Shown: positions 42,710-63,960, numbered from the stretch's first letter. The stretch: 64,000 nucleotides of DNA from Tubulanus polymorphus (GCF_964204645.1 NC_134026.1:12113950-12177949); one strand, 5' to 3'. Numbers and translations are program-made. The notes: generated by a model from the letters alone, not told the origin.

Positions 42710-43052
42710 AGTAATTAGGAAATGGCGTTTTCATACCAGAGGTCGAGAGGTCGAGACACCACTCATCACAGCTAGGCTCTAGTGAGATCGGACGATTGCT
42801 CTGTGATACACATATACAGTGAGTGCTCGTAACAACAACTGCGCGTGGATAGATCGATACAGTGAGTCGCTACTGAGAACGGTTATTAACGCGTGTGCTA
42901 TTACTGTAGTACAGTGACTGCGTGTCAGCGGTGCTGGGATAAATAGATGCTGTGAAGCTTGGGTGAGAACGGTTAATAGCGTGCTTGTTATATACAAGGG
43001 GAAGTAATCCCCACTCATCACCACAAGTAATTTTTTTTCCTTATAAATGGGA
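42710..43052 (+). repeat. Left TIR, containing a ~250-bp segment absent from the right TIR
   Basis: 42710-42769 and 43011-43052 match the reverse complement of 60030-60120. CCACTCATCAC is duplicated around the extra segment. Confidence 0.9.
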
Positions 43053-43433
43053 GATAGAAAAGCATTCTTAGCAACAATAAATAACAGAATAAAACCAGCA
43101 AAAAAAACAATTTGAAATAAAAAAGTTAGTTGATGTTACAAACGAAATTGAACATAAAATATTGAAATTAGAAAAGGTTAAAACTAAATATGGAGAGAAA
43201 TTGAACATAAAATATTGAAATTAGAAAAGGTTAAAACTAAATATGGAGAGAAAGTATCAGCTAATTTGAGCTACTGTAATGTTAGTACATCGCGAGAATT
43301 TAAAGTATTTTTACCTGATAAATGGGTTTCATTGAGTACAGAGGAATTAAAAGATTTAGAAGGATTTAAAATAATCTATCATGGAAAAAATGAAGATGGC
43401 CATCATGATTTAGAAATTATTGATTACATTTAA
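43047..43433 (+). pseudogene. Small protein (possible OB-fold ssDNA-binding), disrupted by a 53-bp tandem duplication
   Basis: TAAATG start and VKTKYGEKV..FKVFLP motif. Duplicated units start at 43144 and 43197. The fold assignment is inference. Confidence 0.5.
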
Positions 43434-43531
43434 AAAAATAAATTAATAAAAATAATGAATATCTAGAATCCGAAATGACTTATCTGGACAATTTAATTGC
43501 TCCGCATAGATAGACAAAAGTAGTGAGATAT

Positions 43532-43930: not shown

Positions 43931-44468
43931 TTATTATAGAAATATTTTTACTTTCAATATTTGAAAATGTTATAACTCCAGTTGATAATAATGTCATAAA
44001 TCCACCTAATTGAAATGATAAATATCCAATCCATTTATTTAATTCGGTCATAACTGAATAATCATTTTTTAAATCAGCATATAATCTATTTTCATCTTGA
44101 ATTGGCAGCATATAATTACATAATTTACTATAACCTTTTACTACATTTTCTGATATCGCGTCATTAATTCTAGCTGTTCTCGCGGTTTCATAAATCTTAA
44201 ATAATCTAATAATTTCATCTGATTTCATTGTATCTAATTCATTATAAGTTAAATTTTTACCGATAAAATTTTTACATTTTCCAGATGCTATTAATATTTC
44301 TAATTGATGTTTACAATAAAGATAATATTCATAATTATTATTTGTTGTAACATTATTTAAAGCACCATCGTTTGGAGTTAATTTTGTTTCTGTTATTCCT
44401 AAATCATCTAAAGTTTTTTCAATTGGAACATCACCATTTTTAGATTTTATTTTCTTTTCTCCTCCCAT
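43878..44468 (-). CDS. Hypothetical Polinton protein
   Basis: 196-aa ORF with T-run/TAAATG start. The 3' overlap with the next gene suggests a terminal frameshift. Confidence 0.65.
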   Translation of the reverse strand: MGGEKKIKSKNGDVPIEKTLDDLGITETKLTPNDGALNNVTTNNNYEYYLYCKHQLEILIASGKCKNFIGKNLTYNELDTMKSDEIIRLFKIYETARTARINDAISENVVKGYSKLCNYMLPIQDENRLYADLKNDYSVMTELNKWIGYLSFQLGGFMTLLSTGVITFSNIESKNISIINEQGGRSEEKTEITETN

Positions 44469-44675
44469 TTATATAACAAAAAAATCAGTTGTGATGTTGC
44501 AACTAGAATTTAACTAGAATGTAACTAAAAATCAACTAGATTAACAAACTAGTTGAATTATTATTGTTTTTATTTATTTCTTGTTAAATCTAGTTGATTT
44601 TTGTTCCAACTACCAATAACTAGAATTCAACTAGAATGTAACTAAAAATATACTAGATTAACAAGTTAGTTGAAT

Positions 44676-45252
44676 TTAAATAAATTCATAATTAAATGGG
44701 TGTTGTAATCTAAATAGTAATTTTGATCTTTTATTATTTTTCAATTTATCCATATATTCATTATGTAAATCATGTGGAATAATATCATTTTCCCCAAGTT
44801 CATTTTTCATCGATTTTCTATCTTTATTGTAGAATAAAACTAGAAATCTTATATTGTCCCTAATGTTATCCCGAAATGTCTACCAGAAAAAGCTAAATAA
44901 CATGACTCACTCTCTCTCTCACTGACTCAATTTTTGAATCATGTAAATTTGCACAATCATCTATAATGAATAATGTATTTGATCCTTTATAAATATCTAT
45001 TGCTATTTTGATACAATTATCTAAATTTTCTTTTACTGTTTTAGGATCTAATATAATAAATTTATTATTTCTAGTAATATTTCTATCATAAGTTTGATTA
45101 AATTCATATGTTGGACAAAATAATACTATATTATCAAAATAGTTTTTATAAACAGTTTCTAATAAATTTAATATAAAATAAGTTTTTCCACAATTTGTTA
45201 CGCCAGAAATTAACATATTATGAGGCTCAAATATAAATAATTCCTTATTCAT
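44676..45252 (-). pseudogene. A32/FtsK-like genome-packaging ATPase, disrupted
   Basis: Walker A ISGVTNCGKT and Walker B LFIIDD. The C-terminus IRDNIRFLVLFY...NYEFI* follows a lesion near 44890. Confidence 0.88.
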
Positions 45253-46380
45253 TTATATATTTTTAATTTTACTTGATAATATCCATTCATTGAATTTATC
45301 TGGCCATCCAACCCATTTTACTAAAGAATATTTTTTTCTTTTAATAGTTTTTGTTTTTAATACTTTTTCAATTTTATATTCTTGTTCTAAATTGTCAGTA
45401 GTTAAACTTAATTCTTCTTCGTAAAAGTAGCCATCAACTTCTTCACCACCTAAATCTTCTAATTTATAGACATATGGTTTTGTTGTTATTACCTTTTTTA
45501 TTTTATATATTTCCCTAGTAAAATTTCGATCGTATCCTTTGTCAAATATCTTTTTATACTTAGAAATTCTAACATTTTGACCAACTTTAAATTTAGGTTC
45601 ACCAAAATCATCTACAAGAAATGCTCCATTTAAATTATTTCAAACAATTTCAGCATTTTCAGGTTTTCTAGCATCAATAGGTTTCATTCCAATAGAAGAA
45701 TGATAAGAATTATTATATCCTTCTATCAATTTTGGTAAAACATCAATCCATTTAAAAGTATTATTTGCTGTAAAGTATTTCCACATTCTTGTTCTTAATG
45801 TTCTATTAAATCGTTCAACAACTGCTGCTTTTTATCCGATTTTGTTGAAAAATATTTAATATTATGATTATCTAAGAGTTCATGAACAAGTGAATTATCA
45901 AATTCTTTTCCATCATCAAATTTTATTTTTTCTGGTTTTATTTTATCATCCGAAAGAAATTTTCTTAAAACATTTGATGTTTGTGCAGCATCTTTTCTGT
46001 AAAGTGGGAAGCTCCATACATAACGACTAAAAATATCAATTATATTCAATATCCACCAATAATCATCATTATCTTTCTTAACATTTTTCGTATCAATTAA
46101 ATCTCCTTGCCACTGTTGATCTACATAACTTACCATAGTTTTACGAGTTTTATATTTTCTAACAATTTTTTTATGTGTTGTGTATGTTGGTTGTTCTAAC
46201 ATAAATTCATTTATATATTTATATTTAACTAAATCTTGTGGGATTATCTTATCTAATTTATCTTGTTTTACTTGACGCCATATATTTTTGGTAGAAGAAT
46301 AAGCAACCGAACTCTCAGGGTTGTAATATAAATTTCTTAAATATTGTTCTTTAGTATTAGGAGTTTTTTTTACCACCCAT
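45253..46380 (-). pseudogene. Retroviral-like (rve) integrase with C-terminal chromodomain, frameshifted
   Basis: QWQGDLID, IIDIFSRY, KFDDGKEF, AAVVERFNRT and chromodomain YKIEKVL..LVKWVGWPDKFNEWI. Frameshifts at about 46370 and 45830. Confidence 0.92.
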
Positions 46381-46410
46381 TTATATATCGTTAATTTTAA
46401 CTTTATATTT

Positions 46411-47652
46411 CTAATATTGAATACTATTTAATTGAGAATTTACAATATTTAATTGCGCGTCAGATATAATATAAATATGCATTTTAAAATTTAAGCTTCC
46501 TTTTTTCTTTTTCATGAATAATTGTATTCCGTCTTTAGTGTTCTGTAGTTTTTTCCCAGAACCATGTAATGAATTATCCTCTGTTGTTCTAAAATCTAAT
46601 CATAATGCATATTTATTGCCGGTATAATAATCAATTTGATTAATATTACAATTTTCAGATGATTTTACTTTTTCATTCATAAAATGTTTTCTAATTTCTG
46701 GCCATTGATCAATCATTCTCATTCCTTGACAAAATATTTCATTTGGTATTCCTTCGAAAGTTATTTCTACTTTTGTTATTTCAGGATTATAATAATTATC
46801 TACCTTTATTGCGCCATTAGAATATGTTGCAATGGTGAAAAATATTAATAAACTTTTAATAGATCTTCTTGGGAAGTTAATATTCTCATTAATTATTTCA
46901 TCATTTGCATTAATAGTTATAGTTTGAAATTTATCAATATAATCATATAATAATGAAAATGCTTGATTGTATTGAGTTTGAATTGTGTTAGCAATATTTT
47001 CATTAGTTACTGTGTTATATTCTAAACATATATTCGATAATTTATAACCCATATCTTTAACAACGCTAGATAATACAATTTCATTTACAAATATTATCTC
47101 AAATATAATATCTTCTTGAATTACATATTTATATAAAGGTGCATTATTATTTATCAATTCAAAGTCTAATGGAATTTTATATTTGCTTCCATAAATCTTT
47201 TTAATCAAATTATCTACGCCATTAGCTACTACTGCATTATTGGCTTCAGATCTTAATTTATTTTGGTTTTCCGATTGAATGCCTTGAAATATCATATTAT
47301 TTCTATTTTCTTTAGTTAACCATAAATCTTTATAATGCATAAATAAATTATAATCATCTAATGAGAAAACTGTTTCTGGACCAATCTTTATAGTTAATTT
47401 TTTAATCAAATATCTTCCAACATTATCAACAACATAATTATTATTATTACCAGTTACTTTTATATCGGCTGATAAATAAATACTATTTGGAACATAAAAA
47501 GTATTTTGTGTTAATCTAGGAATTCTAACATATAAAGTTTCATCGGGATTAATATTTGAAGGATTATGAGTAATTATATGATGTGATCTTTCTGCTTTAA
47601 TAGCATTAGATATTCTAGAAATCTTAGAAGGACTTATATAACTCCCACTCAT
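46411..47652 (-). pseudogene. Major capsid protein (double jelly-roll type) with one premature stop
   Basis: HNPSNINPDETLYVRIPRL and VVDNVGRYLIKKL. The frame continues past TGA at 46600 as LDFRTTEDNSLHGSG..HIYIISDAQLNI, giving about 413 aa. Confidence 0.8.
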
Positions 47653-47672
47653 TTATTTAACAAAAAAATTAA

Positions 47673-49116
47673 TTATTTATTTTTTATTATTTTTTCTTGA
47701 TATCTTTTTGATATCATATTCACTAACCCAAAAATAATAGCACTTACAAGTGTAATTAAAAATAAAATAATATGTTCAGCAGCAAAGTTAAGAATATTAC
47801 CTGCAGATTTCAATATAAAACCAACAATTGATGCAATAATTCCTGGTAAAGCTGCAGCAGATTTTTTAGATAGTTCCCATAAATATTTTGCTAATTTCTT
47901 TAAACCATCCTTAACTTTATATTTTATAGAATTATTATCATTCGGGGGTTTTTCCGGTTTATTGGGAGTAGGAGTAGATTTCAAAGAATTTGATATTGCT
48001 AAACCAATTGTTGTAAATAACATAGTTACAGCTGTTAGAATTGAAAGAATTGTTATTCCTTCTAATTTAAATAATAACTTTATTCTATCTTTTAATGATA
48101 TTTCAGAATTTGGTTTAATCAACAAATCTTTAAAAATAACTTAATAATCTATTAATATTATAATCATATGATTTTAATAATAATTAAATTTCTTCTTTCT
48201 GTACTTCTAAATTATCTTTTAAATTATTAATTTCTTTTTCTAATCGTAATTCTTTTTGCCTATATTCTATTTCATCAATTACTTGATGATCTAAATCAGA
48301 CTTTTATTGTTCTATTTCTTTATCTTTATCAGTTAATTCTTTTTCTAAAAATCTAATTTTAAAATCTCTTATGCTTCATTTCTTATACTAATAATTTCTC
48401 TAATTGCTTTATCAGAAATTATATTTAAATCTTCTAATTGTTGATCTGTTGCATCAATTAATCCATTCGGTAAAAGTTTTTCAATTGGAACTTTATTTGA
48501 TTTAAGTTTACTAGTTTTGGAAGTTATATTCTGTTCAGAAGTTGTTTCTGTTTCTGATTTCTTTTTGATTATTTCAAATAATTCATTAATTCTTTGTTTA
48601 AATACGTCTATATCATTACCAGTTAATTCTTGTTTTATAACAGCAGTTATTACATTACTATTGCTAATTCTTTTAATTCTATCTGGATCTAAATCACTCA
48701 AAGTTGATTTTGTTAATATTTTATTTTTATTATTTTTATAAGTGATATCAATATAATAATCACCTTTCAAATGATAATACCATTATTTTACCATTATCTA
48801 AAAATTTTAATTGATCTGCTAAAGGTCCAACGTCTTCATCATTTATGTTAAGTTTAGAATTTTCAATTATACGTTCTAATTTAGGTATTTTGTTTAAATT
48901 ATCTAAATCTTGTTTTACTAAATCTGGGTCTAAATTTTCAGGATTTAATTGTGATTCTGCATTTTTAATATAATCAGGCATATTCAAATTATTATTATAT
49001 TCTGGCTCATTACCGTCATTAAAACTTGTTTCACTAAAATCAGGCGGTTGTTCATCAGTTATGCCAGGTTCATCAAAATTATCCATTCCAATATCTTCTC
49101 CACCTTCTACATCCAT
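47673..49116 (-). pseudogene. Coiled-coil protein with hydrophobic/amphipathic C-terminus, split over several frames
   Basis: Single TAAATG start at 49116 and consecutive ORF pieces. C-terminus LFKLEGITILSIL...AAALPGIIASIVGFIL..FAAEH. Confidence 0.65.
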
Positions 49117-49132
49117 TTATATAATAAAAAAA

Positions 49133-49882
49133 TTAAAATTTAAAATATAATATTCCTCCTATAACAATTCCTATACAAGTTAAAGCTAATTTAGTATTTT
49201 CATGGGATTTATTATCATCATTTAGTTTAATTATTTCATGTTGAATATTATCAGTTTTTATATCTTCTGATGTATTGTAATCTTTTATTTTAGAATCATT
49301 ATTTAATTTAATATTATTAGTTTTAGTTTCTGTTGATTGAATGTGTTTTTTATTTTTTTCACCTTCCATTAATTTTGGAGCAGTAATAATCTTTTTATTT
49401 ATATCATTCAATCCAAATGAATTATTTATTGTTGCAGTTTTAATTAGATTATTGTAACCAATTATGTTTCCCATCTTTAATACTAAATCATTAGAAATAA
49501 TTAATAGATTAGGGCCTATACAATAATTTAATCTAATATGTGATTTATCTAAATAATTTTGATATCTTACAATGTTTTCTGGAATCGATCTATTTTTATC
49601 ATTATGAATTGAATCTTCAAATAATACTTTAAATTGTTTCTGCGCATCGAATGAGGTGTTATCATTTCCAATTATTGGTGATCTTGTTTCAACTTGCGCA
49701 CCTAAAATACATATCAAATAAGTTCTAATTGATTGATTTATTCTTTGTATTCCAGCTTTAGTAAAACCTTCACTATTTTCTAAAATGAAATTAACCCAAC
49801 CATTATTGTTTTGTTGTTGTATATTATTATAATATTTTGGTAATTCATTCCAATTTAGTGTTCTTATATCTGAATTTGTCAT
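49133..49882 (-). CDS. Hypothetical Polinton protein with C-terminal TM anchor, possibly one gene with 49882-50457
   Basis: 249-aa ORF with GFTKAGIQRINQSIRTY motif. Start overlaps the upstream stop (TAATG). Confidence 0.65.
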   Translation of the reverse strand: MTNSDIRTLNWNELPKYYNNIQQQNNNGWVNFILENSEGFTKAGIQRINQSIRTYLICILGAQVETRSPIIGNDNTSFDAQKQFKVLFEDSIHNDKNRSIPENIVRYQNYLDKSHIRLNYCIGPNLLIISNDLVLKMGNIIGYNNLIKTATINNSFGLNDINKKIITAPKLMEGEKNKKHIQSTETKTNNIKLNNDSKIKDYNTSEDIKTDNIQHEIIKLNDDNKSHENTKLALTCIGIVIGGILYFKF

Positions 49883-50457
49883 TATTTTTCAAATTCTTTA
49901 GTATATAATATTCCTAATCCACCCATTGTTCCAATTTTTGCTCTAAAATCTTTATTTGAATTAATATTAAATTCATTACATATTTTATAAAACTTAGAAA
50001 AATTAATATTATTATTTAGTTCTTTAAAATATTTTGAACCTGGTAAAGGACATTCTAATTCATCTAATATTAATTTTATTTGAAAATATGTATGAAATCT
50101 AAAAAGTGATAACATCAATGGTAAACTTGGTTTATTCAAATGATCATTCCAACTTATTCCACATCCTGTTGTTGCGCAATAAACAGCAAAATTTAATTGG
50201 TTCTGCCAATACTTCATATTAGATTTTAATAACCATTGTTTTGCCTCATTTAAATTTTTAAAATTAATTGTATACACATGAAATATATTTTCCATCTTTA
50301 CATGAAAATTATTACTTTCAGTAACATAAATATATAAATCAATTAATGAATTTAAAACTTCATTTCTATATGTAATATCTTTATTAAAATCTATTGCTGG
50401 AATATTATATTTAATTGATTTATTGTATTGGAAAGCTGTTGGAAAACTATCTACCAT
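49882..50457 (-). CDS. Hypothetical Polinton protein
   Basis: T-run/TAAATG start and motif WQNQLNFAVYCATTGCGIS..FRFHTYFQ. Confidence 0.65.
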   Translation of the reverse strand: MVDSFPTAFQYNKSIKYNIPAIDFNKDITYRNEVLNSLIDLYIYVTESNNFHVKMENIFHVYTINFKNLNEAKQWLLKSNMKYWQNQLNFAVYCATTGCGISWNDHLNKPSLPLMLSLFRFHTYFQIKLILDELECPLPGSKYFKELNNNINFSKFYKICNEFNINSNKDFRAKIGTMGGLGILYTKEFEK

Positions 50458-50472
50458 TTATATAATAAAAAA

Positions 50473-50891
50473 TTAATTCTTTTAATAATTTATCTTGTTC
50501 TTCAACTGTTATATGGCCATTTAAACTTATTATATAATCTAGTGTATTCTTTAATTTATTAATTTCTTTTATATTAGTTTTAATTTTTTCTTCATTACTT
50601 TTTATATTTAATTTTGAACTTATACCAGTTAAAACACTTGAACTTAATCCTAATACGCCAATTGATAAAGCTAAAGGTGTTAATGGACTGAATATTGCTA
50701 GAAATGTTATAACAGAACTAATTGTAACCGAACCACTAATAATAAAATAATATATAATTTTAGATTTTAAATATTTTTTCTTTTTAACTTTTAAATCATT
50801 TTCAAATTATAATATTTGTTTCTCTAAATATGTTTTTAATTTTATTTATATCATGAGGAATGATATCAATATTATCAACTTTATCTTCCAT
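50473..50891 (-). pseudogene. Small two-TM protein, frameshifted
   Basis: T-run/TAAATG start MEDKVDNID and hydrophobic IIYYFIISGSVTISSVITFLAIFSPLTPLALSIGVLGLSS. Confidence 0.5.
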
Positions 50892-50910
50892 TTATTTAGA
50901 AAAAAAATTA

Positions 50911-51334
50911 CTAATTAGTAAATTTATATGCTACAAATATAACAATAACTGTTCCACCTAAAATCCAAATTATTTCATATTTCTGTTGTTCTTTACTTGG
51001 GGTATAATAATCTGATAATTTAGGTTTGTATAGATGTAATTTTTCTTTATTGGTTACCGCGTTATATAAACTCATTGCATCATCGACTGATTGAAAATCT
51101 CTATGTGAAATCTTCTGATCATATAATTCCGCGTTAATATAATCCATATAGTTTTGTCTCTTTTCTCTATATTCTTCTGCAGCTTTATTATATTTTTTCT
51201 AATGCTAAGTTATGTCTTTTTTGTTCTGATAATGAACCATTTTTATCAATATGCTTAAATAAATAACCGCCACCAGTAAATGCTAAAGCGTTAACAATTG
51301 CCGATCCTATAATAGTTATAATTGCAGAAGCCAT
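50911..51334 (-). pseudogene. Small Polinton protein with hydrophobic N- and C-termini, frameshifted
   Basis: TAAATG start MASAIITIIGSAIVNALAFTGGGYLF..EQKRHNLALEK joins ORF 50911-51147. Confidence 0.6.
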
Positions 51335-51358
51335 TTATTTAGTAAAATAATTACGTAT

Positions 51359-51580
51359 TTATATGGGAGGAATATATTTTTGTTTTTCTAAATAATCAAT
51401 AGTTAAATTAGATAAAGTAACTGCAAATGTTAATTTTAAGATATCATTTATATCAAATCTATCAACATTAACACTTCGCATTTTAAATACTTTTTTTAAT
51501 ACCATTGAATAACCAACAGTTCCAACTGATAGTAATGCTCCATTATATAATCCAGTTATTATCCACTTATTATCACTCAT
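51359..51580 (-). CDS. Small hydrophobic Polinton protein
   Basis: T-run/TAAATG start; 73 aa ending DYLEKQKYIP. Confidence 0.65.
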   Translation of the reverse strand: MSDNKWIITGLYNGALLSVGTVGYSMVLKKVFKMRSVNVDRFDINDILKLTFAVTLSNLTIDYLEKQKYIPPI

Positions 51581-51937
51581 TTATTTATCAAAAAAATTAC
51601 TATCTTCAAAATATTTAGTTAACTTATTTATGATTATTTCAACATTTATTTCATTACTAGTTTCATTTGTATATATTTCAATTATTATTTTTTTAATATC
51701 AGCGATGATAAAATCTTCATCTAATTTATAAAATCTTAAAGATTCTCTAATTAAATTAGTAAACTTTTCTACATTTAAAGTTTCTTTATCTATTGTTGTT
51801 TCATACTCAAATGTTGTTTCATTAAAAAATGTAATATTTTTGATATGAGTTATTACATCATTAATGTTGAATTTCATTTCTTTCTCACGTTTCAAATCAA
51901 ATCCGAAACATATACTCGGTCCAACAGTTATATTCAT
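51581..51937 (-). CDS. Hypothetical protein
   Basis: T-run/TAAATG start. Its TAA stop abuts the next ATG. Confidence 0.6.
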   Translation of the reverse strand: MNITVGPSICFGFDLKREKEMKFNINDVITHIKNITFFNETTFEYETTIDKETLNVEKFTNLIRESLRFYKLDEDFIIADIKKIIIEIYTNETSNEINVEIIINKLTKYFEDSNFFDK

Positions 51938-51953
51938 TTATATAATGAAAAAA

Positions 51954-52709
51954 TTACTCTTTACATCTTTTAACTAATTCATAAATTACAGGAAAGTTAT
52001 TCAAATCAATTAAATATCCATTGTGATTTCTTATTTCTAATTTAAAATTATTAAATTGAGGAATACAAGGTTTAAAATCACATTCAGCTAAATTATAATT
52101 TATTTGCGTTCCAAATTGTTTAATATTTTTTAATGGTTAAATATTTAATATACTAGAATTACAAATTGTATCTTTAGTTGCTTCAAATGTTTTTGTTGGG
52201 TCAATTAAATTGCAATGAATATAAAAGTGTGTAAAAGGTATTATATTTGAGCTACCTTCTGCGTTTCCAGTAACAATACGCGATTTAATTCCTAACATTT
52301 TAGCTATTGGTTTGTTTACCATAAATTTATTTTGTTCATTGGCTAACTTTATTTTAATTTTATCAGAACTATCACTTTTTATAAATCTATTTGAAAATTT
52401 ATCTTCACTTTCAAGTTTTAATCGTGCTTTCCGATTAATTTCTTGGCCTAATGTTTCTAAATTATATAACCCTGGTTTTAAAAATAGATGAAACCATTTA
52501 TTTATATTTCCAATATGAATTAAAAAGTCTCTTTGTTCAAAAGTTTTAGCCGATATATTATAAAAAGAGTTACATAAACTTATATTAACTAATTTTAAAT
52601 CAACACAATTCTTAAATTCTCTATCTAATTGAACTAGTAAATTATGTGATTTATAATTTGTAAGTTATCTAGAATCAACAAATATTCTGTATTCTTTTAA
52701 TTCACCCAT
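51954..52709 (-). pseudogene. Probable minor capsid (penton) protein, frameshifted
   Basis: MGELKEYRIFVDS, SFYNI, LKPGLYN, FYIHCNLID and LEIRNHNGYLIDLNNFPVIYEL fit a single jelly-roll penton pattern. Confidence 0.65.
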
Positions 52710-52767
52710 TATTTATAACACAAAAAAATTACCTCTCATCACCACTGGTAATTTTTTTCCCTAATAA

Positions 52768-53815
52768 ATGGATGAGAAGATACCATGTGAAATTTGTGGT
52801 GAACTTCTAAGAAAAAATAATATGGCTCGACATATGAAAAAACATAATGAAAATTATAAACCCCCTAAACTAAACTGTCCAAAATGTAATAAATTATTCT
52901 CAAGAAATTATGTTAAAAAACATTCCGAGAAGTGTAAAATTAATGGCGCAACGGCTAATGTTGATAGTAATGAAAGTAATAGTAATTCTGTTGAAGTTGA
53001 ACCTGAAATTATTTGGAAAAGACCTTTCTTATTCTATGACAAGGATAATATGAAAGATCATTTCTGTGCCTTGTCAAATGAAATTTAGTCCTGAAAATAT
53101 AGAAGCTTGGGAGAATCATCAATTTCGTGAAGTACATATAGATAAAATTTCTAATAAATTTGAAGCAGAATTCAATGAAAGAAAAAATAGTTTATTAGAA
53201 AAAATAAAATATGAGAAAACGTTACCAGATAATAAAGAAACAGTTGAAAAGTTAGAAAAACAATATAATGAATTAACAAGAAAAACATATTATTGTAAAT
53301 ATTGTAAATTTATTATTACAACAAGTAATTCAAATCTACATAATAGAACAATAAAACATAAAGAAAACGTAAGAAAATACCAGGAGCTTAATGAAGATCT
53401 ATTACCAATAGATTATGAACACAAATGCCCACAATGTAATTATGCGACCTTAAGGCAAGAAGGTACTGTGTTATTTTGTAATGAATGTGGATGGCAAAAG
53501 AATTTATGGGGTGAAGAAAAAACTAGAGATTTTCTCATAGAACCTAAATCAGATTATCTAGATGAAATTTTTAAAATATTTTCTATAGAAGATCATACAC
53601 CAGAATATAAGCAATGGCTTGAAAAAATGAAAATAATAGAAAATAAAAATGGTGAAATAACTAAAAAAGATATTATAAAAACAATTATTCCATCAACATT
53701 TAACACAAAACAAAAGAAAATGTATTTATATTTATTATTTAACGATTATTATGAAAAACCTAAATTAACAGAAGAAGATATGGAAAATATAAAAAGAACA
53801 TTCAAACAAATATGA
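52768..53815 (+). CDS. Multi-zinc-finger protein (two overlapping ORFs, probably one frameshifted gene)
   Basis: CEIC..RHMKKH, CPKC..H..KC, CKYC..HNRTIKH and CPQC..CNEC. Extended start motif upstream. Confidence 0.7.
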
Positions 53816-54094
53816 ATGTATCATTTGGAAAATAGAATAACAGATTCAATTAATTATGAATTCTTTTTAAATAAGATTGTAAATTATTTAAACATCGATA
53901 TTATAATTCCATTTGACGAATTAACAAACAAAAAGAAACAAAGAGAGCGATATGAAATGTGGTACAAGATAGAAATTTATTTAAATGAGAAAAATGAAAT
54001 GGAAGAACCTAAACAAATTATACGAGAACAATTAAATGAAAATGAAGAAGCCAATAGTGATTTCGAGTATGATGATATTGATTTTCTGTTTTAA
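53816..54094 (+). CDS. Hypothetical acidic protein, possibly the C-terminus of the upstream gene
   Basis: 92-aa ORF in frame immediately after the TGA of 53066-53815. Confidence 0.45.
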   Translation: MYHLENRITDSINYEFFLNKIVNYLNIDIIIPFDELTNKKKQRERYEMWYKIEIYLNEKNEMEEPKQIIREQLNENEEANSDFEYDDIDFLF

Positions 54095-56584
54095 TGGCCA
54101 TAAGGTAATGTTTTTATACCATCATCTAAAATATGCCTTTTATCATCAAATGGATTCAAACTAGTTTTTTCAACTTCATTAATGTACATCTCGTGATCTT
54201 CTGATCTTAAACAATTCATTTTATGTTTCATTACAATTGAGTTATATAAACACTTTATATAATCTTGAAATTCTATATGTTTATCAACCACATGTTTTGT
54301 TATTCCTTTTAACTTTTTAGCTTCATGATCTTTTGTTCTGTAACTATACATTTTACTTCTTATCCCAACAAATTCAATCATCTCATCACCCCCTAATTCA
54401 TCTTTAAATTTACCAGGAATCTTTTTATTATCTTTGCTAAATAGTTCATGATCTTTGGGATAATTGCTAAAATCAAAATGATGTTTTAATGTTTTTAAGT
54501 CTTTTGTTATGTCATTTGTGTTGATTTTTAGTATGTAGGCATCCGTATTGAAGCAAATTAATGGAAATCCACAGTTGAATGTGCCATCTTCAGTTGATAA
54601 ATCATAAACATAATCTGATGGGTTATATATTTCAAATAAATCTTTAACTTCTTCAGTTAAATCTTTTTCTGTGTGGCTTAAATTAAAGCAATTTGGTTTA
54701 GATTTAATCAATCCAATATTCATATTGAAGCCTAATGAATTACATAATATATCTAACCCTGATATAGCAACTTTTCCTTTCTGTGCAAAGGTTATCTTTT
54801 TATCCTTTGTAAATTTTTTAGCACCATCTGCTGCGTAGAATCCAATGAAGAACCATTTTCTTAAATCATTTTTTGCATTTAATACATAATCTGGAACTAT
54901 CTTTTCTTTAGTTGAAGTATTACTTTTCACTATTGCATGAATATAGAATTCATCATTATATTTTATAGCAAAATCTTTAGGATTATTTACAAGTATTCTA
55001 TAAACTGCTGATGATTTCATAACATCCATGATTCTAAATGTTTTATGTGAATAAACTTCTTCACAGAATTTCTTAATTCTTTCTAATAATTTCAAGTCTT
55101 GATTGCATAAATACCAACAATATTTAATACCCCAAACATAATTATACACGCCTGCTGAACCATCACCCATGAAAAATCCTTTGATAAAATATTCTTTTTA
55201 TTCAGGTTTCAGGTTCTATATTATAAATATTATCAATTATTTCATCAAATGACATATGATTCATTCTTTGGAAAAATCTTTTATGTAATAATTCATCTCC
55301 AATTTTTATATCAGTTGGTTTTATTTCATCACCATTTCGTTTAATTAAACTATGATCTTCTGTAACATCTACAAACCCTAATTTAGTTCTAACTCTATAG
55401 ATTTTCTTATTTGTTTTATGCCTAATAATATTCTTTAATTTTTTCCATCCATTTCTTGTCCAAACATCCATTAAACCATTTATTTGTATTAATTCTTTTT
55501 CACCATATGAAATATAACATTCATTTTGTTTTGGAATTATTTCTGAAATTCTTCTTATCAATATTTTATTATTACATTTTAATAATATTGGGGTGTCAGC
55601 TGTAACAGAATCAAAATATAATATTTCAATATGCTTTTCCCCAAAAAGTGGTTGTAAAACATTATAATAAAAATCATGCATTAATAATTTTGATACTTCT
55701 AAAACAGTTGAACCAATGAATATAGGTTTATTAAATTTCATTGACGTTCTTTTTAATTTAACTTTAAATAATCTTCAAATCTTTTATTTCCTAAATGTCT
55801 AGGACTTGATTGTAAATGTCTTAATCTTTCAGAATTATTTACTAATTCAATATCATTTCTATTTCTAATGTTTTCACATGTTTCACCATAAAAACTATTA
55901 TACATTAATTTGAAGAAATCTTTTTCAAAATCTGTTTTTGATATGGTTCTCTGTTGAGTATTGAAATCTATATATTTTTCTAACCACTTCGATTGATTAA
56001 ATTCAATATATCTATGTACTTTCTTTAATTTCATTCCTTGTTTTAGATAAAATTTTAACATTCTATAATGAACAATATAATTGTACTTATTATTTTGAGT
56101 ATTAATTTTTCTGTAAAAACATGATCTTTCGGTTTTATTTTCTTCTGGTATTCACTAAATAACTATCATCTACGGTTAAATGTTCTGGGCAATAAGGTAA
56201 GTTTATTGTTTTAAACATTATATTTTTAGGATATTCTAAATCAACTACAAAGAAATAACCAATTGGTGCTTCATCTTTTAAACTCGCAATTGCGCTTTCC
56301 CAATCAGTTTTATCATCATTTTCAACTTCTGTTAATATAAAATTTTTATATGGTTGAGGTTGCATCATTGCCCAACCATATAAATTATTGGCGTCAATAT
56401 ATAATAATTTATATTCATCATTTGCTTTAAAATACCTATCTCCCATAACACCACTAATTCCACCTCTAATTGATTTTTCAAATTATAAAACCATATCTGG
56501 TTCTTTTAATAAATCTAATTTTACATTTGTATATTTTTAACCACATTGCCAGGTTAAACCAGGACTTGAATAACAATAACAAGG
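54091..56584 (-). pseudogene. pPolB C-terminal half (copy B), intein-containing and frameshifted
   Basis: YIDANNLYGWAM (motif A), KLMYNSFYGET (motif B), YFD|intein|TDA (motif C), GKFKDE, RSKMY, KLKGI and FDDKR..TLPYGH. Confidence 0.92.
54547..55609 (-). mobile_element. Intein with LAGLIDADG homing endonuclease in pPolB motif C (~354 aa, one frameshift near 55200)
   Basis: Block A SVTADTPILL, block B VDVTEDHSL, block C IKGFFMGDGS, block E FFIGFYAADG, block F YVYDLST, terminal ICFN followed by Thr+1. Confidence 0.93.
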
Positions 56585-57471
56585 GTTGAACCTATAAATA
56601 TTGGTTTATTAAATTTCATGGACGTTCTTTTTAATTTTACTGCTGTTAAATAATCTTCAAATCTTTTATTTCCTAAATGTCTAGGACTTGATTGTAAATG
56701 TCTTAATCTTTCAGAATTATTCACTAATTCAATATCATTTCTATTTCTAATATTTTCACATGTTTTACCATAAAAACTATTATTCATTAATTTGAAGAAA
56801 TCTTTTTCAAAATCTGTTTTTGATATTGTTCTCTGTTGAGTATTGAAATCTATATATTTTTCTAACCACTTCGATTGATTAAATTCAATATATCTATGTA
56901 CTTTCTTTAATTTCATTCCTTGTTTTAGATAAAATTTTAACATTCTATAATGAACAATATAATTGTATTTATTATTTTGAGTAAGTATTAATTTTTCTGT
57001 AAAAACATGATCTTTCGGTTTTACTTTCTTCTGGTATTCACTTAAATAACTATCATCTACAGTTAAATGTTCTGGGCAATAAGGTAAGTTTCTTGTTTTA
57101 AACTTTATATTTTCAGGATATTCTAAATCAACTACAAAGAAATAACCAATTGGTGCTTCATCTTTTAAACTCGCAATTGCGCTTTCCCAATCAGTTTTAT
57201 CACCATTTTCAACTTCTGTTAATATAAAATTTTTATATGGTTGAGGTTGCATCATTGCCCAACCATATAAATTATTGGTGTCAATATATAATAATTTATA
57301 TTCATCATTTGCTTTAAAATACCTATCTCCCATAACACCACTAATTCCACCTCTAATTGATTTTTCAAATAATAAAACCATATCTGGTTCTTTTAATAAA
57401 TCTAATTCTACATTTGTATATTTTAAACCACATTGCCAGGTTAAACCAGGACTAGAGTAGCAATAACAAGG
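55707..57471. repeat. Diverged ~880-bp tandem duplication within polB (55707-56584 and 56585-57471)
   Basis: The segment PCYCYSSPGL...KPIFIGST is encoded twice, with substitutions and small indels. Confidence 0.95.
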
Positions 57472-59481
57472 ATCAACATTAAAATGATTCAAATTAACTT
57501 CTCTAAATTTTTCAAATATGTCAGCCAATATCATAACATCTGATTTTAAATATAAATCAACTAATTCGCCATGATTTTTCATCTTAAAATGGTTCCAAAT
57601 ATTTAATGTTCTATCAAAAACTTCGTCTTTCACATACTCCTCTTTTAATTTATCATAAAATTGATCTTTTAATAATTCTGTTACATTAAAATCATCATGT
57701 GTTTTATAAAATGAATAAGGAATTGCGCCTTTATATCTCAATAATTTAAAATCTTGTTCATTTGGATAATAATATCGAGTTATAATAAAATCATTATCAA
57801 CTAAACTTTTTGATAAATTATCTAATGAACTTGCTAGAAATCTATAAGAATCTAAAAATCTAATACAACCAAATTGAAATGAAATATAATTTTCAGATGT
57901 TTTAGCTAATAGTTTAAAATCATATTTTCTTACATTTACACCATTCATAGCATTATATTCTTCTATTTCTTGATTAATTGCGCCCAATTTTCCCGATAAT
58001 TGTTTTATAAATAGATGGGTATCATATCCTGATAAATTATGAAATAATATTGGTACGAAATTTACTTTTTTAGCTTGTAAATTGCAATCTTCATGAGCAG
58101 CTCCACGATATTTTGAATTCAAATGATCATGATCTCTAACTCTTTTATCAAATGAATAAAAACGTTTTTCACAATAACAACAATGAGTTGCATAATTAAA
58201 ATCAATTTCATCTTCTTTTGTCATAACTATTCTTTTATTTTTGTTTAATAATTTTGTAAAATCACTTTCTAATTCAATCATTTTCTCACAAAAATCATTA
58301 ACTACATCTTCACCTCTAAAAGAAATATATTGACTTTCATATAATTCAGGATAATTTGATTTTATATAAATTCCATAAGCAGCAGCTCTTTGATGAACTT
58401 TTTTAATTGTATTTATAATTGGTGGGTCTTGTATTGTGTCTTCATTTAATTCATTTCCTTTATCCATTGATTTTAATAATTGCTTTTTGTTATAAATTTC
58501 TTTTCTATCTTGATCAGTTAATTCTTTATTCAACGATTCAAAATCCCCATAAATTACAAATGGAACAATATTTTTAAATTTATGATTAGTAAATTTCAAT
58601 TTATAATCTTTTTCTGTTGGCATTATTAATTTACAAAAATCTTTATTATCACATAATTCTTTATGTTTTAATAATGTATTCTCAGTCATAAATTTAGATA
58701 AACATTTTCTACATAGATAAATTTTACGATGATGATCACTTTCTGTTCTAAAGAATAAATCAATTTGTTTTAACCACATATAATGTTCATTTTCATCTTT
58801 TTTGTAATATAACAAATCTATAGCATTTTCATCATCATAATATTCTGTTAAATATAAAGCTTCCAAGGTATAATCTTTAATATTTTCACCTTTTGTCTTT
58901 GGTAATTGCATTAATTCGAATACATTTATTTTTAAATTATTAATTTTTTCTATTTTGGGTATCATTTTTATAGTTACTGGATATTGATCAATTTTATATA
59001 ATGTTTCATATTTCCGGTAATTTGTTATTCTAAAACTATGTGTAATATCTTCTGTTGGGTGTAAGCAACTAATAATTGACCATAGAAAACATTTATTATC
59101 TTCATTTTGAATATTTATTACTGCTTTTGTTGTAAATGGTAATTGAATATAAGATGATGCTTTAATATCCTTTTCTGTTGTAAAGTTTGAATCATTTTTA
59201 AACATTTTATTACTTTTTGATGTTTTATTCCTTTTTGTATTATAAACATTTAAATCTAAATATATAATTTCATTCAATGTTAAGCCAGAACCCTCAAAAT
59301 ATCTTTCTTCAATATGACGTTTAAATTCATTTAATATTTTTTCTAACTTCTCTTTTATTTGTGTTTTTGAAATTATTTCTTCAGAGAGTGTTTGAATATT
59401 ATAATTCATTTTTTCTTCTGACTTTATAAAACTTACTTTCCCAGAGATACTAATTTTTGGATATTCAACATCTGTTATCAA
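56554..59481 (-). CDS. Protein-primed family B DNA polymerase (copy A), truncated before motif C, with inserted endonuclease VII/HNH domain
   Basis: NEDNKCFLWS, ExoI YGDFES, CCYC..VRDHDH..YRGAAHEDCN, ExoII FHNLSGYD, ExoIII YLKSDV, motif A YIDTNNLYG and motif B KLMNNSFYGKT. Confidence 0.95.
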   Translation of the reverse strand: MITDVEYPKISISGKVSFIKSEEKMNYNIQTLSEEIISKTQIKEKLEKILNEFKRHIEERYFEGSGLTLNEIIYLDLNVYNTKRNKTSKSNKMFKNDSNFTTEKDIKASSYIQLPFTTKAVINIQNEDNKCFLWSIISCLHPTEDITHSFRITNYRKYETLYKIDQYPVTIKMIPKIEKINNLKINVFELMQLPKTKGENIKDYTLEALYLTEYYDDENAIDLLYYKKDENEHYMWLKQIDLFFRTESDHHRKIYLCRKCLSKFMTENTLLKHKELCDNKDFCKLIMPTEKDYKLKFTNHKFKNIVPFVIYGDFESLNKELTDQDRKEIYNKKQLLKSMDKGNELNEDTIQDPPIINTIKKVHQRAAAYGIYIKSNYPELYESQYISFRGEDVVNDFCEKMIELESDFTKLLNKNKRIVMTKEDEIDFNYATHCCYCEKRFYSFDKRVRDHDHLNSKYRGAAHEDCNLQAKKVNFVPILFHNLSGYDTHLFIKQLSGKLGAINQEIEEYNAMNGVNVRKYDFKLLAKTSENYISFQFGCIRFLDSYRFLASSLDNLSKSLVDNDFIITRYYYPNEQDFKLLRYKGAIPYSFYKTHDDFNVTELLKDQFYDKLKEEYVKDEVFDRTLNIWNHFKMKNHGELVDLYLKSDVMILADIFEKFREVNLNHFNVDPCYCYSSPGLTWQCGLKYTNVELDLLKEPDMVLLFEKSIRGGISGVMGDRYFKANDEYKLLYIDTNNLYGWAMMQPQPYKNFILTEVENGDKTDWESAIASLKDEAPIGYFFVVDLEYPENIKFKTRNLPYCPEHLTVDDSYLSEYQKKVKPKDHVFTEKLILTQNNKYNYIVHYRMLKFYLKQGMKLKKVHRYIEFNQSKWLEKYIDFNTQQRTISKTDFEKDFFKLMNNSFYGKTCENIRNRNDIELVNNSERLRHLQSSPRHLGNKRFEDYLTAVKLKRTSMKFNKPIFIGSTLVIVIQVLV

Positions 59482-59525
59482 ATCTAGTATTTTTTCTATT
59501 ATTTCATTAAATTTACTATAATCTT

Positions 59526-60035
59526 CTATTGTTGTACCTTTAAAAATCTAAATATAATAGCTGCAGGACCAATTTTACTATGTAATGTTTCTAAGATTTC
59601 AATTGTATCTTTTATTTCTAGTGAATCAATATAATTTCTAACATTTTCCATGTAAGGTTTATTTGAAATGGATTTAGTTTTTGAAGTTGATTCTTTTACT
59701 TGTTGAGGTTTATCATCAAAATAATCTATTCCTAAAACATTATTTCTCAAATTTTGATGGTGTTTTTCTGTTTCGAGATGTCTATTATAATTCCTTTTTG
59801 TTATAAATTCATCACAAACTTCACATTTTATTTCATTCACATTCATATTTTCTAATCGTTCTTTTCTTTCATTGGAATTTTCTGGAGTTTCAAAATCTAT
59901 TACATTTTTTATATGATTTGCAGTTTTTTCATGTCGTGTTTTATTAGATGTATCGATGTATTTTTTACAATATTGACAATAATATTGATTTTTATTGACA
60001 TTATTGTTTTCTAGTTGGTGTTCATTCTCCCCCAT
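59526..60035 (-). CDS. Two-zinc-finger ORF, probably the frameshifted N-terminus of pPolB
   Basis: CQYC..RHEKTANH and CEVC..RHLETEKH. Carries the only TAAATG start upstream of the pPolB ORF, which itself begins at TTG. Confidence 0.7.
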   Translation of the reverse strand: MGENEHQLENNNVNKNQYYCQYCKKYIDTSNKTRHEKTANHIKNVIDFETPENSNERKERLENMNVNEIKCEVCDEFITKRNYNRHLETEKHHQNLRNNVLGIDYFDDKPQQVKESTSKTKSISNKPYMENVRNYIDSLEIKDTIEILETLHSKIGPAAIIFRFLKVQQ

Positions 60036-60120
60036 TTATTAGGAAAAAAAATTACTTGTGGTGATGAGTGGTGTCTCGTCCTCTCGTCCTCTGGTATGAA
60101 AGCCACATATTCTAATTACT
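60030..60120 (-). repeat. Right TIR of the Polinton
   Basis: Reverse complement reads AGTAATTAGAATATGTGGCTTTCATACCAGAGGACGAGAGGACGAGACACCACTCATCACCACAAGTAATTTTTTTTCCTAATAAATGGG. Confidence 0.92.
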
Positions 60121-60139
60121 CTGATGATATACCGAATTC

Positions 60140-61310
60140 TTTTGACATAAGTCTATGATCGGTGCTGGTAGTTCATTGTTGATAAGCTGATATGCGTGTC
60201 TAAGTATTTCTAACTGGATCATGTCTTGGAATTTTAGAATTTTTAATTTGCGAAATATTGGATCTGTGGGGCTATTGTATGCTGATTTAGAAATAATTCG
60301 AACGGCTTTTTTCGAATCTGGACAGGTTTCTTTTTCAGATAAGAGGGCCCAATGAGATGAGTGAGTACGTAAAATGGCAATGGATATAACTGAAATAAAG
60401 TTGTCTTAAACAATATGTAGGTACTAAATGTTTAACAGAGTTAATTGAATAAATTTGACTAGCTATTTTGGTGCAGATTTTACTAATGTGTAAATTGAAA
60501 TCAAGAAACTCGTCTAAATGTAATCCAAGGAAGCATGTTGATGATACTAAATTAAGTTCCTTGTTGTCTACTTTATCGTATAATCTTGATTCTTAATATT
60601 TTTGAATATTTTTAATTCTATTTGGTTTAAAAAGAATTACTTTTGTTTTAGAAATGTTAACAGTTAAATTATTAGCAGTAAACCAATCTTGTAGTATATT
60701 CAAGTCATTTTCAATGGTTTGTATCAGATAATCAATTGAGCTTCCGCTAATATATACGGTCGTGTCGTCGGCGAATAAGATAGGTTTACATTTTTTCAGA
60801 CACATGTGCATATCGTTAATGTATACTAAAAACAGTAATGGTCCTAATACGGAACCTTGAGGTATACCGTAGTTAATGTGTGATATTTCAGATTGAATAC
60901 TGGAGAAGTTAACATACATTGAGCGCTTTTCTAGGTAACTTTTAAACCATGACAAAACATTTCCTCTTATACCATATACATATAATTTATGAATTAGATA
61001 TTCAATATTTAGGCAATCGAATGCTTTACTCAAATCAATAAATGCGGCTAGTGTAAAACAGTTAGATTCAAATGATTTTATTATATATCCTATTAGTTCC
61101 ATGCTAGCATGGCTGGTAGCATGGCCAGTTCTAAAACCATATTGACTTTTATATAAGATAGAGTACTTAATCAAATAGCCATATAATCGCTTATGTATTA
61201 TCTTTTCAAGAATTTTAGAGATGGTTGGCAATAGTGATATCGGTCGATAGTTTTCAAAGCTCCTTTTATCGTCTCTTTTATAGATAGGTGTTACACTGGC
61301 TATTTTAAAT
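60140..61310 (-). pseudogene. CR1/L2-group LINE reverse transcriptase fragment
   Basis: YRPISLLPTISKILEK, QYGFR, DLSKAFD, GIPQGSVLGP and LFADD. Confidence 0.92.
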
Positions 61311-62039
61311 GCATGTATAATTCTAATTATAGACTATCACTGTATCAAAACAATGTTACAGTAGAGTACTATTCATGCAGTCACAATGGCCCAGTTTCAG
61401 TAGGGTACAAGACTTGCACTTGATAGATCAGAAGTTCGAATCTCGCATAGTTACATATTTTGTTCACCTCCGATAGTTCCACGGGGAAGGTTTATATATG
61501 TTCCAACTAAATTCCATAGCTAATAGATCGAACAGTTTGATGTTCTGGCTTTAAAAATTCAGCCGTGGTTTCCACTTACTCACTACGTCAGCAAGCAGCT
61601 AGAATTTCAGTCAAATCAAACTATGCCAGATGATTTAAAATCTGACTCTGACTTTAAATCATTTGATACTGTAAATGCAAACAAATGAATGGATATTAAA
61701 TTCAGACCAAAAAAAACCAAGAAACCGAAAAACATTAAAATCCTGATCCGAATTGCCGGCTCGAAGTTTCTTCATATTATTAAATCATTCAGGAAGAGAA
61801 TGGGAAGACAATTAATTCATTAATATTAATTTTTATTAAACAATAAAAAACAAAATAAAATCACCAAATATTACAAATATATAAATCTGGAAAAATAAAC
61901 ACCGAAGAACTCAATTAATAACAAAGATAATTTCTCTAAACAATTTGACGTGAAATACAGACGGAGACAATGACAATTAAACAAAGCCTTGGGAAAAGAT
62001 TTAACTAGAATCGCAGTAGTTGAGTATTTAGGCAGTCAA

Positions 62040-63960
62040 GGTCAATAAATTTAGGCTAATTTTCATTCAACTCTCGCCTCATTAGAAGAAGCTTTTTCAA
62101 TCGGTCATAGCTACGAAGGTTTGTCTTGAAACCCATATTTTCGAGTTCAGATTTTATTCCAGCTACAGTGTCACACCCTCTGTGACAAGCACTGTACTTT
62201 CAATTTCGTCCGAAATTTTTGATTTCTTTCGTTTCGCCCGTTCAGCTTTTTCAGTGCACCAGTACTTTTCATTTCTCTTAACATAAGCTCTCTTATTACG
62301 GGCATGACCTTGACCGGCTAAATACTCAACTCATTTTATAACAATTAGGGCATCAGTTGGCCCATCCGCTCTGTTACACTTCTGGAGATGAATTCTCTTG
62401 AGAATATCATTAACCTTTTCAATGCCCTGGCCACTATAAGAACACAAAGAACTAAAATTGGATAACATATACGGCACATGATACAGCATGATATGCATAT
62501 AAGGAGTAATGTTGCTTTTCTTAAAACCTTTTCTTTTGGCTCCTAAATCTAAAAATGCTTCAATCCAAGTTTTAGCTCGGTCAAAAGCTGCTGTACAACT
62601 ACAAGACCGGGAATCAAAATAGCTAATGAGATTATGTAATTTCATGAAATCGCCCCATAACTTTAACATTGCTAATTTTGTATCTTCATGTACAACATCA
62701 CTTTCACTCTGCAGTAATAAAGGAAGCTGGGTCAACAGCTTTTTCATATCACCTCCTGTTAGGGATGACCATTCGACCTGTCCAAGACCTTTATTAGTTA
62801 CTGGGTCTCTCTTTTCCCAGATATTGAAGCATATACCACATTGTCTGATCAAAAAGCACAGTTTTTTCAACCTGGAACCGATAGGTGATTGACTTTCGCT
62901 ATTGATTCCATGAAACGTATCATGATCATCAGAATCCCGGACATCAGTTATAATGTTCCTTAACAAAATATCCCCTATTCTTAACAAAAGATGAAGTTCA
63001 TCAACGAGAATGTTTCTAGGTTCACTTTTGAAAATTGGAAGCTCCTGAAGGCCATTATTTAGGGCCAGTGCGTCTGGTGTCATATCCGAGTATGTTCTTT
63101 TCATAGGTGTTCTAGAATAGTTATCCCAGGGCTTAGAAACATCATTTAGATTTTCATTCCTAACACTGCACCAAGGACAGCACTGTGTGGCGGTGGATCC
63201 CTTTAGCCCACACAGAATTTGTAGAAACTTAAGATCAGAACCCAAAACAATGTGGACATAATATTTTTGGTCTCCAATAAGGATGAACCCAGAATCTATA
63301 ATACAGTTAATTTCATCAATCAAAGTTCTGAATCCACTTTTGATGAGGTCATACGACTCGCCTCCCTTTATGATACTAAAAACAGATGGGATGCCAGGTT
63401 TTGCGCCAGTATTCAAAATGGACATGGACAGATACTTTTGACATTTCACTGGGACACTTTTGACATTTTCGCTCCATCGCCGCCAATTTTCACTTTTACA
63501 CATGGTTGGTTTTTTCCACCAAGTTTAATCAACTCTATGAGTTGCATTTTGAAACTAATGTATGCACCAGGTTTGCCATTTTCACACCTTTGAATATCAA
63601 TGGTAAAATATTGACGACAATCAATTACCTGGGATTTAGGCCGTAAAGTATTTCCAGAGTACACACACAACTCATGATATGCTTCATCTGAAACATAAAA
63701 TGAGTCTAAGATATACAATAGATCTTTCACTTTATCTTTTTCGGATTCACACAGCTTTTCATAGCAAGAATACTTCCGAACAGCAAAATCAGATTGAGGA
63801 GAAACATTGATCACAACATTTTCTTTGTCATTACTTGAGATAAACTGCAAGCTTTCAGGTAATAGACCAAAAATTCTCTGCAAACCATAATGCTTTTTTA
63901 CTTTGTGAGGCTAACGTTTTCAATTTACGAGATTTTTGGTGACTACCTACTTCGTGGTAT
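62040..63960 (-). pseudogene. Transib/RAG1-like DDE transposase, frameshifted, 5' end outside the window
   Basis: VKIGGDG, SDLKFLQILCGL..CCPWC, DELHLLLRIGD, ITPYMHIMLYHVP and SGQGIEKVND. Confidence 0.75.

Follow-up and report, generated by a model that had tools for sequence, protein, structure and literature searches.

Does the DNA polymerase gene of a virus-like element in what appears to be an animal genome contain a protein-splicing element, and, if so, where did that element come from and does it move between copies? We examined this question in a stretch of 64,000 nt labelled Tubulanus polymorphus (the window), for which a reading made from the DNA letters alone (hereafter the sequence-only reading) had proposed a homing-endonuclease intein in the active site of a Polinton protein-primed polymerase (pPolB). 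The explanation that we hold with good, though not complete, confidence is that the insert is a canonical LAGLIDADG intein in polymerase motif C, that it belongs to a clade resident in Polintons and likely drawn from giant-virus polymerases, that it is predicted to splice and to home, and that it likely resides in an animal genome.

The motif C insert is a class 1 LAGLIDADG intein

The intein runs from 55609 to 54547 on the minus strand of the window (1,063 nt) and includes a LAGLIDADG endonuclease domain; the coordinates proposed from the sequence alone proved exact. The polymerase reading ...EILYFD stops at 55610, the intein begins with SVTADTPILL at 55609 and closes with GFPLICFN at 54547, and the polymerase then continues with TDAYILK, which puts the insertion point between the Asp and Thr of pPolB motif C (YFD/TDA, the slash marking the junction). 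Because the closest intein-less polymerases read EIMYFD/TDSYILK at their empty motif C, the insert is precise. The earlier assignment to the pol-c site holds as far as the D/TD position in motif C is concerned, but the letters here are YFD/TDA and not YGD/TDS. The reading frame of the intein is broken once, at 55198-55204, and the translation used below (P0001, 354 residues) bridges this break with X only. The parts of the intein are:

54547..55609, minus strand: intein, 1,063 nt (354 steps, two X at the break); DNA reads skip exactly 1,063 nt, and motifs and fold agree
55274..55609, minus strand: N-terminal splicing (Hint) region with Ser1 and block B T83-x-x-H86; TIGR01445 above cutoff, beta strands in the model
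55198..55204, minus strand: frame break in the linker ahead of the endonuclease, a lesion of the window copy; seen in translation, reads differ
54673..55197, minus strand: two-motif LAGLIDADG endonuclease domain with D149, K236 and D261; PF14528 above cutoff, I-DmoI and PI-type folds
54547..54672, minus strand: C-terminal splicing region with block F D336, tail NCGFPLICFN, penultimate Phe and terminal Asn; assigned by residues

Every motif named in the sequence-only reading (Ser1, TxxH, two LAGLIDADG motifs, terminal Asn, Thr+1 and a penultimate residue other than His) was found in the translation, where the residues are S1, T83-x-x-H86, GFFMGDG (D149), K236, GFYAADG (D261), YVYDL (D336), F353, N354 and Thr+1; the class 1 residue list (Ser/Cys1, TxxH, block F Asp, Asn, Ser/Thr/Cys+1) is that of the accessible part of PMC7765530. 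Profile searches, which the same reading had suggested, placed both the N-terminal intein region (TIGR01445 intein_Nterm, 31.7 bits versus a cutoff of 24.5) and the endonuclease (LAGLIDADG_3, 26.6 bits versus 22.5) above their cutoffs, while Pfam Intein_splicing stayed under its cutoff for the window piece (17.6 versus 35.8) and exceeded it in the relative P0003 (37.7). An AlphaFold model from a 48-row alignment reached a pLDDT of 91.8 and a pTM of 0.91, and its best Foldseek matches were all intein homing endonucleases (PI-PkoII, E 2.8e-17; TliVMA, TM 0.66; PhoVMA; PI-PfuI; PI-SceI). The insert has the Hint fold and, nested in it, a two-motif LAGLIDADG domain with its two acidic residues. The agreement of motifs and profiles is well beyond chance, and the window insert is a canonical class 1 LAGLIDADG intein.

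A penultimate His is frequent in class 1 inteins and is not obligatory. The window intein has Phe in this position and also lacks the block F His; across the 234 units of the intein family the penultimate residue is His in 116, Lys in 88, Ser in 9 and Phe in 9, and both histidines are likewise missing from open-frame relatives such as P0006. Judging from these relatives, their loss is probably tolerated for splicing. An unbroken frame from intein to extein, absent in the window copy, is present in P0002, P0003, P0006, P0014 and P0015.

Other accounts of the insert could be rejected: homologs and reads from a second study rule out an assembly artefact or chance, the occurrence of the joined form in DNA reads and the Hint fold encoded by the insert rule out an RNA intron, and the internal insertion, the endonuclease and the empty alleles rule out a Hedgehog or BIL-type Hint domain.

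The carrier is a decayed Polinton

Polintons (Mavericks) are recognised by AG...CT terminal inverted repeats and a 6-bp target-site duplication. The element that carries the intein occupies 42710-60120 (17,411 bp), with AGT...ACT ends and inverted repeats of ~95 bp, and contains the following features:

42710..43054, no strand: left terminal inverted repeat (begins AGT), ~95 bp, split by a 251-bp insert
44679..45252, minus strand: A32-type packaging ATPase, fragmented (PF04665, 3.6e-7)
45253..46427, minus strand: rve integrase with C-terminal chromodomain, fragmented (PF00665, 1.5e-10; PF00385, 6.4e-5)
46411..47652, minus strand: double jelly-roll major capsid protein, broken close to its end (weak PF16903; Atlas capsid clusters, 0.97)
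54091..54546, minus strand: pPolB C-extein, from Thr+1 (TDAYILK); 78% identity to the intein-less P0296
55610..59990, minus strand: pPolB N-extein in several frames, with an EndoVII-like insert (tblastn; PF03175, 1.4e-18; weak PF02945)
55707..57471, no strand: ~887-bp tandem duplication, 96% identical, within the pPolB gene
60026..60120, no strand: right terminal inverted repeat (finishes ACT)

The element is a Polinton, as it encodes a packaging ATPase, an rve integrase with a chromodomain, a double jelly-roll capsid protein and a pPolB; with the inverted repeats, these genes bear out the carrier that had been claimed. We found no matching 6-bp target-site duplication, the sequences beside the 42710 and 60120 ends being different, and no Pfam match to a maturation protease among the element ORFs scanned. 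The window copy is dead, since the intein frame is broken, the pPolB gene has additional frame changes besides the 887-bp duplication, and several other genes are fragmented; the copy may in addition be rearranged. The 251-bp insert in the left terminal repeat is bordered by a short duplicated stretch of that repeat.

A single intein clade occurs in two classes of Polinton polymerase

A search of longer proteins gave 320 matches in 2,938 candidates. Among the best 120 of these, which were listed, 12, the top 7 included, were pPolBs with an intein at the same site (41-62% identity), and most of the other listed relatives were RNA-primed PolBs at ~28-41% identity. A representative library yielded 2,116 matches at E 0.001, 150 of them listed. 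We cut 234 complete intein units out of 294 proteins and built trees under LG+G4, without a mixture model, from 227 of 235 rows (8 near-identical rows dropped) and then from subsamples of 55 and 53. The pPolB inteins were monophyletic in every tree, with 13 of 227 rows (100), 11 of 55 (100/99) and 9 of 53 (100/100), and both endonuclease Asp residues are conserved in all 13.

These 13 inteins span two polymerase classes. P0006 belongs to the other pPolB class, with a strong PF03175 match and, as judged by eye, a VSR-like motif; its extein is ~30% identical to those of the other carriers, and its intein is 49% identical to that of the window and nested with it at 98/94. From these sequences, we infer that the intein jumped between Polinton pPolB classes at least once. 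Within the class of the window polymerase, the intein tree mostly tracks the C-extein tree, and the carrier C-exteins are ~40-60% identical; the sequences point to a single, old acquisition of the intein by Polintons. No relatives of P0002 were found in GTDB genomes, and when viral and metagenome contigs were scanned with P0001, full-length identity did not exceed 41% in the matches listed, none of which reached the level seen in Polintons. The carrier P0013, on a 2.5-kb contig assigned to the MAG of a bacterial symbiont, probably represents host contamination.

The clade nests among giant-virus pol-c inteins

The sequence-only reading had called for a tree with giant-virus and archaeal pol-c inteins, and this tree places the pPolB clade within the giant-virus radiation and apart from the archaeal sequences. 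With six archaeal pol-c inteins from GTDB as the outgroup, the clade lies in a group of 33 rows (94/97), most of which are pol-c inteins of giant-virus type. The six archaeal inteins form a distant separate clade (100/100), which rules out a classical archaeal donor. By its splicing domain, the pPolB clade belongs with a subfamily whose members have the tail N[CTS]G[FYTS]PL[IL] in common (98). All 13 pPolB rows end in this tail, as do 19 others (which were grouped by it), and the other 195 rows lack it. By its endonuclease domain, the clade groups with P0017 and P0252 (94), a sister group that recurs in one whole-intein tree (97/94). As the endonuclease and splicing domains join different sisters, the intein may be a mosaic; the sister group differs between domains and between trees, and the 53-row tree favours no particular sister. 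Members of the PLI-tail subfamily lie on giant-virus MAG contigs, and the genome that holds one of them, L011, is classed as Imitervirales IM_01 (PMC8575486 supplement); the giant-virus genomes classified from a paper number three only, and most "PolBc" rows are metagenomic proteins. On these tree positions, the pPolB intein clade is likely derived from giant-virus polymerases.

The same subfamily reaches beyond giant viruses. T4-like phage PolBs carry a PLI-tail-subfamily pol-c intein in P0018, P0020 and P0172 (PHROG 262 and phage records) and in P0021 (tree), and, judged on sequence, T4-like phages may conceivably have been intermediates of the transfer. The wider intein family also occurs in two archaeal PolBs of Asgard type: L038, whose record bears the label Promethearchaeota, and the sister sequence L040.

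Homing demands that both DNAs share a compartment, and together with the nesting of the pPolB clade in the giant-virus pol-c radiation this would suit direct transfer of the intein from a giant virus infecting the same cell, which would mark such Polintons as helper-virus satellites. Some PLVs are described as parasites of giant viruses (accessible part of PMC11161782), and an association of PLVs with entomopoxviruses has been reported (PMC11296320). We nevertheless regard this reading as doubtful. Among the matches listed, the closest giant-virus inteins show at most ~41% BLAST identity, against 62-72% within Polintons, and an acquisition that was single and old, given carrier exteins only ~40-60% identical, would say little about present dependence. 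Moreover, T4-like bacteriophages, impossible satellites of a eukaryotic virus, hold the same subfamily; because both they and the Asgard archaea carry the family in their PolBs, intein transfers happen without a helper-satellite relationship, and the pPolB intein is weak evidence for a helper virus. Of the transfer from an NCLDV PolB to a pPolB that had been proposed earlier, the nesting in giant-virus inteins stands and the single hop into the window element does not, the clade being old, patchy and crossed between classes. As for the helper-virus support drawn from it, the finding is compatible with such a relationship but is no test of one. We prefer the reading of an old, Polinton-resident clade likely derived from giant-virus polymerases, the intein being a record of past contact of Polintons with giant-virus-type DNA.

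Several observations concern the wider family. The presence of one intein subfamily in T4-like phage and giant-virus PolBs implies transfer between bacterial and eukaryotic viruses. The pol-c inteins of the two archaeal-type PolBs (L038:6001-7008 and L040:6001-7008, 336 aa) group with the giant-virus radiation, not with the classical archaeal inteins. The family also occupies non-polymerase sites (P0009, P0190, P0277, P0279, P0289 and P0047), including topoisomerase II-like junctions (DQD/TDG, DAD/TDG) that resemble the acidic pol-c junction.

The flanks suggest a likely animal host

Two features on the right of the element bear on the host:

60112..61333, minus strand: LINE-type reverse transcriptase remnant, adjoining the right end (RVT_1, 4e-33)
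62331..63524, minus strand: 397-aa flank ORF whose named relatives are animal (3 matches in all)

The sequences on either side of the element are the remains of eukaryotic transposons (piggyBac, ISXO2-type, Gypsy RNase H and LINE reverse transcriptase). The 62331-63524 ORF matches sequences from Tubulanus polymorphus (48%) and Mytilus edulis (40%) and one further unlabelled sequence, and the Atlas clusters of the piggyBac ORF are eukaryotic, mainly arthropod. Resting on these transposon-like flanks, an animal host is very probable, and the multicopy presence in two studies together with the decayed state suggests that the Polinton family resides in the germline. The animal-germline claim of the sequence-only reading draws support from the nemertean and mussel best matches in the flank and is weakened by the lack of a host gene: none was found in 121 short flank ORFs, which gave only DUF3987 and PHD fragments. 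A scan of the window for host markers returned 0 tRNAs and 0 Rfam matches, and the Atlas neighbours of the capsid protein are labelled viral, not animal.

It is improbable that the window came from a protist, a symbiont or a contaminant, in which case inteins would be extended to Polintons and not to animal genomes. The missing host gene would allow for such a source, as would the intein-bearing viral-like polymerases on algal and labyrinthulid nuclear scaffolds described in the accessible part of PMC10710043. The only named relatives of the flank ORF are, however, nemertean and mussel, the piggyBac ORF has mainly arthropod company, and a second study under the same species label covers the family deeply in its whole-genome reads. 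An animal genome remains our preferred setting.

The flanks hold further structures. The left-flank transposase ORFs are long and open (piggyBac, 583 aa, 12302-14053; ISXO2-type, 350 aa, 17406-18458). At 31572-34613, a Gypsy RNase H fragment is enclosed by a long, imperfect, foldback-like inverted repeat that contains 154-bp subrepeats. A second AT-rich island at 34734-36600 (GC 0.26) includes a 214-aa ORF with a terminal zinc-finger-like motif and a 24-bp tandem array, and is possibly the remnant of another Polinton-like element.

Carrier and empty copies coexist

A survey of intein-plus and intein-minus copies, also proposed in the sequence-only reading, found both, in DNA reads and among pPolBs. 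The copies of the window family were surveyed by DNA reads from a whole-genome run (X6, ~12% read) that belongs to another study but bears the same species label. In this run, 21 reads span the site with precisely 1,063 nt missing, and another 43 lack the intein but show a few different letters there, so that carrying and precisely empty copies are both present in DNA reads of a same-labelled organism. The depth within the intein is 0.54 of that in the flanks, which is a rough carrier share only, because the flanks also draw more distant families. Nearly all reads across the 55198-55204 break differ from the window, and the frame break therefore looks private to the window copy. Across 40 listed read rows (162 further rows lie outside this test), 11 of 18 listed variable intein sites are third codon positions (p 0.014). 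A marine-metagenome run (X5) contributed only short scraps and no evidence.

Among the pPolBs, 118 newly listed close relatives comprised 84 with an empty site, 34 that could not be scored and 0 carriers; P0002 and P0003 were the only carriers among 120 listed close polymerases, or 2 of the 86 that could be scored. On the C-extein tree, 12 carriers in 45 rows need 9 changes, a number as low as in ~60 of 500 shuffles. Carriage is patchy on the polymerase tree and no more clustered than in the shuffles.

Cluster 2, a related family whose polymerases are nearly identical and of which 15 of 136 members were listed (7 carriers, 5 empty copies and 3 fragments that were left out), has contigs of up to 1 Mb, may span several genomes, and offers a closer comparison, with exteins 94-99.7% identical. 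Carriers and empty copies among the listed members are set apart by 11 near-fixed differences, every one of them within -6 to +104 of a total of 1,191 residues; random placement gave an equally tight cluster in 0 of 200,000 draws. The empty copies differ right at the site (YFD/TDA, YTD/CDS, YGD/TDA). In a second pair, the carrier P0142 and the empty copy P0145 are 99.7% identical outside the intein. The pattern is one that homing is predicted to leave and would fit co-conversion and the survival of cleavage-resistant sites; ordinary recombination with a carrier family could also have produced the clustered differences.

Although the intein tree mostly tracks the C-extein tree in the class of the window and trees do not separate gain from loss, we consider it very unlikely that the intein has been handed down solely by vertical descent as an old passenger, with repeated losses and an endonuclease that has stopped homing, given the catalytic Asp conserved in 13 of 13 inteins, the concentration of cluster 2 differences at the site, the crossing to P0006 and the many precise losses that 2 carriers among 86 scorable listed polymerases would need.

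A model for splicing and homing

We propose that an unbroken copy would make its polymerase as an intein-containing precursor, inactive until spliced. By the class 1 chemistry set out in the accessible part of PMC7765530 (N-O shift, +1 attack, Asn cyclisation), Ser1 would undergo the N-O shift, aided by the block B Thr and His, Thr+1 would then attack, and cyclisation of Asn354 would rejoin the YxD-TD catalytic motif. In related Polinton copies without the intein, the endonuclease is predicted to cleave the motif C codons, and repair from carrier copies would bring in the intein and some flank. This could take place from one chromosomal copy to another or while the element replicates outside the chromosome. 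According to the trees, the clade would have entered Polintons once, long ago, and thereafter would have descended with the polymerase, with loss and regain among close families and at least one jump to the other pPolB class. We lean, by a small measure, towards the broader proposal that a giant-virus-derived intein acts as a protein-splicing gene drive in animal germlines, homing among Polintons and leaving conversion tracts and escape variants as it moves between classes and hosts. As carriers and empty copies of a multicopy family occur in one organism, homing, co-conversion and target-site escape become measurable from ordinary assemblies. The clade also offers new splicing domains and meganucleases that, from their sequences, have likely worked in animal cells.

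Relation to known systems

The closest known counterparts are the pol-c inteins of giant-virus PolBs, described in the accessible part of PMC5784728 for the RNA-primed PolBs of Phycodnaviridae, Iridoviridae and Mimiviridae. The window intein shares with them the D/TD site in motif C, the size class, Ser1, Asn and Thr+1, the two LAGLIDADG motifs and its nesting in the tree, but the Polinton extein is protein-primed and only ~20-30% identical near the site, and its carrier is a multicopy integrating element. The Hint and LAGLIDADG fold is common to archaeal pol-c and solved DOD inteins (PI-PkoII, TliVMA, PI-PfuI, PI-SceI); archaeal pol-c loci have the YGD/TDS site in common, and the six archaeal inteins are a distant clade.

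Endonuclease domains within pPolBs have been seen before, as HNH and VSR inserts in Polintons (PMC10748475, accessible part), and the window pPolB itself has a weak EndoVII match. As far as the accessible parts of PMC10748475 and PMC11161782 go, the HNH, EndoVII and VSR inserts are described without a Hint domain or splice junctions; PMC11161782 only speculates that they stem from intein invasions, and "HINT" and "LAGLIDADG" are absent from PMC10748475. Unlike these inserts, the window insert is an entire intein placed within the catalytic motif, and alleles without it exist. Cases in Klebsormidium, Tetrabaena and a labyrinthulid (PMC10710043, accessible part) resemble ours in that a polymerase intein has entered the nuclear genome of a eukaryote with a virus; those hosts are non-animal, and the Polinton carriers form a dispersed family in which both alleles occur. 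The main text of PMC10710043 does not mention polinton, Maverick, animal or metazoa.

The sequence-only reading had left the question of novelty to a literature check. We found no Hint-type intein in a protein-primed polymerase and no already described Polinton intein clade in our searches of an open-access library, although supplements and Repbase notes could mention one. The word "intein" is absent from the main text of PMC8502044, PMC13215967 and PMC11131425; the accessible parts of PMC12220804 and PMC3671162 mention inteins in general terms only, and those of two reviews (PMC5784728, PMC8529194) hold metazoan genomes to be without inteins. Within this literature, a Hint-type intein in protein-primed polymerases, forming a mobile clade in Polintons and likely in animals, is new. 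If the host is an animal, the statement that there are no metazoan inteins fails for endogenous virus-like elements, not for host genes.

With respect to the element itself, the window copy has in common with Polintons or Mavericks (adintoviruses; PMC8502044, accessible part) a pPolB, an rve integrase, an ATPase, a double jelly-roll capsid protein, inverted repeats and a length of 17.4 kb, but our searches of it turned up neither a target duplication nor a protease. Between 44457 and 60060 of the window, a ~29-nt AT-rich motif (CCATTTATWTA...AAAAAAATTA, plus strand) stands at the starts of many of the Polinton genes, and it is probably an element-specific promoter or start signal.
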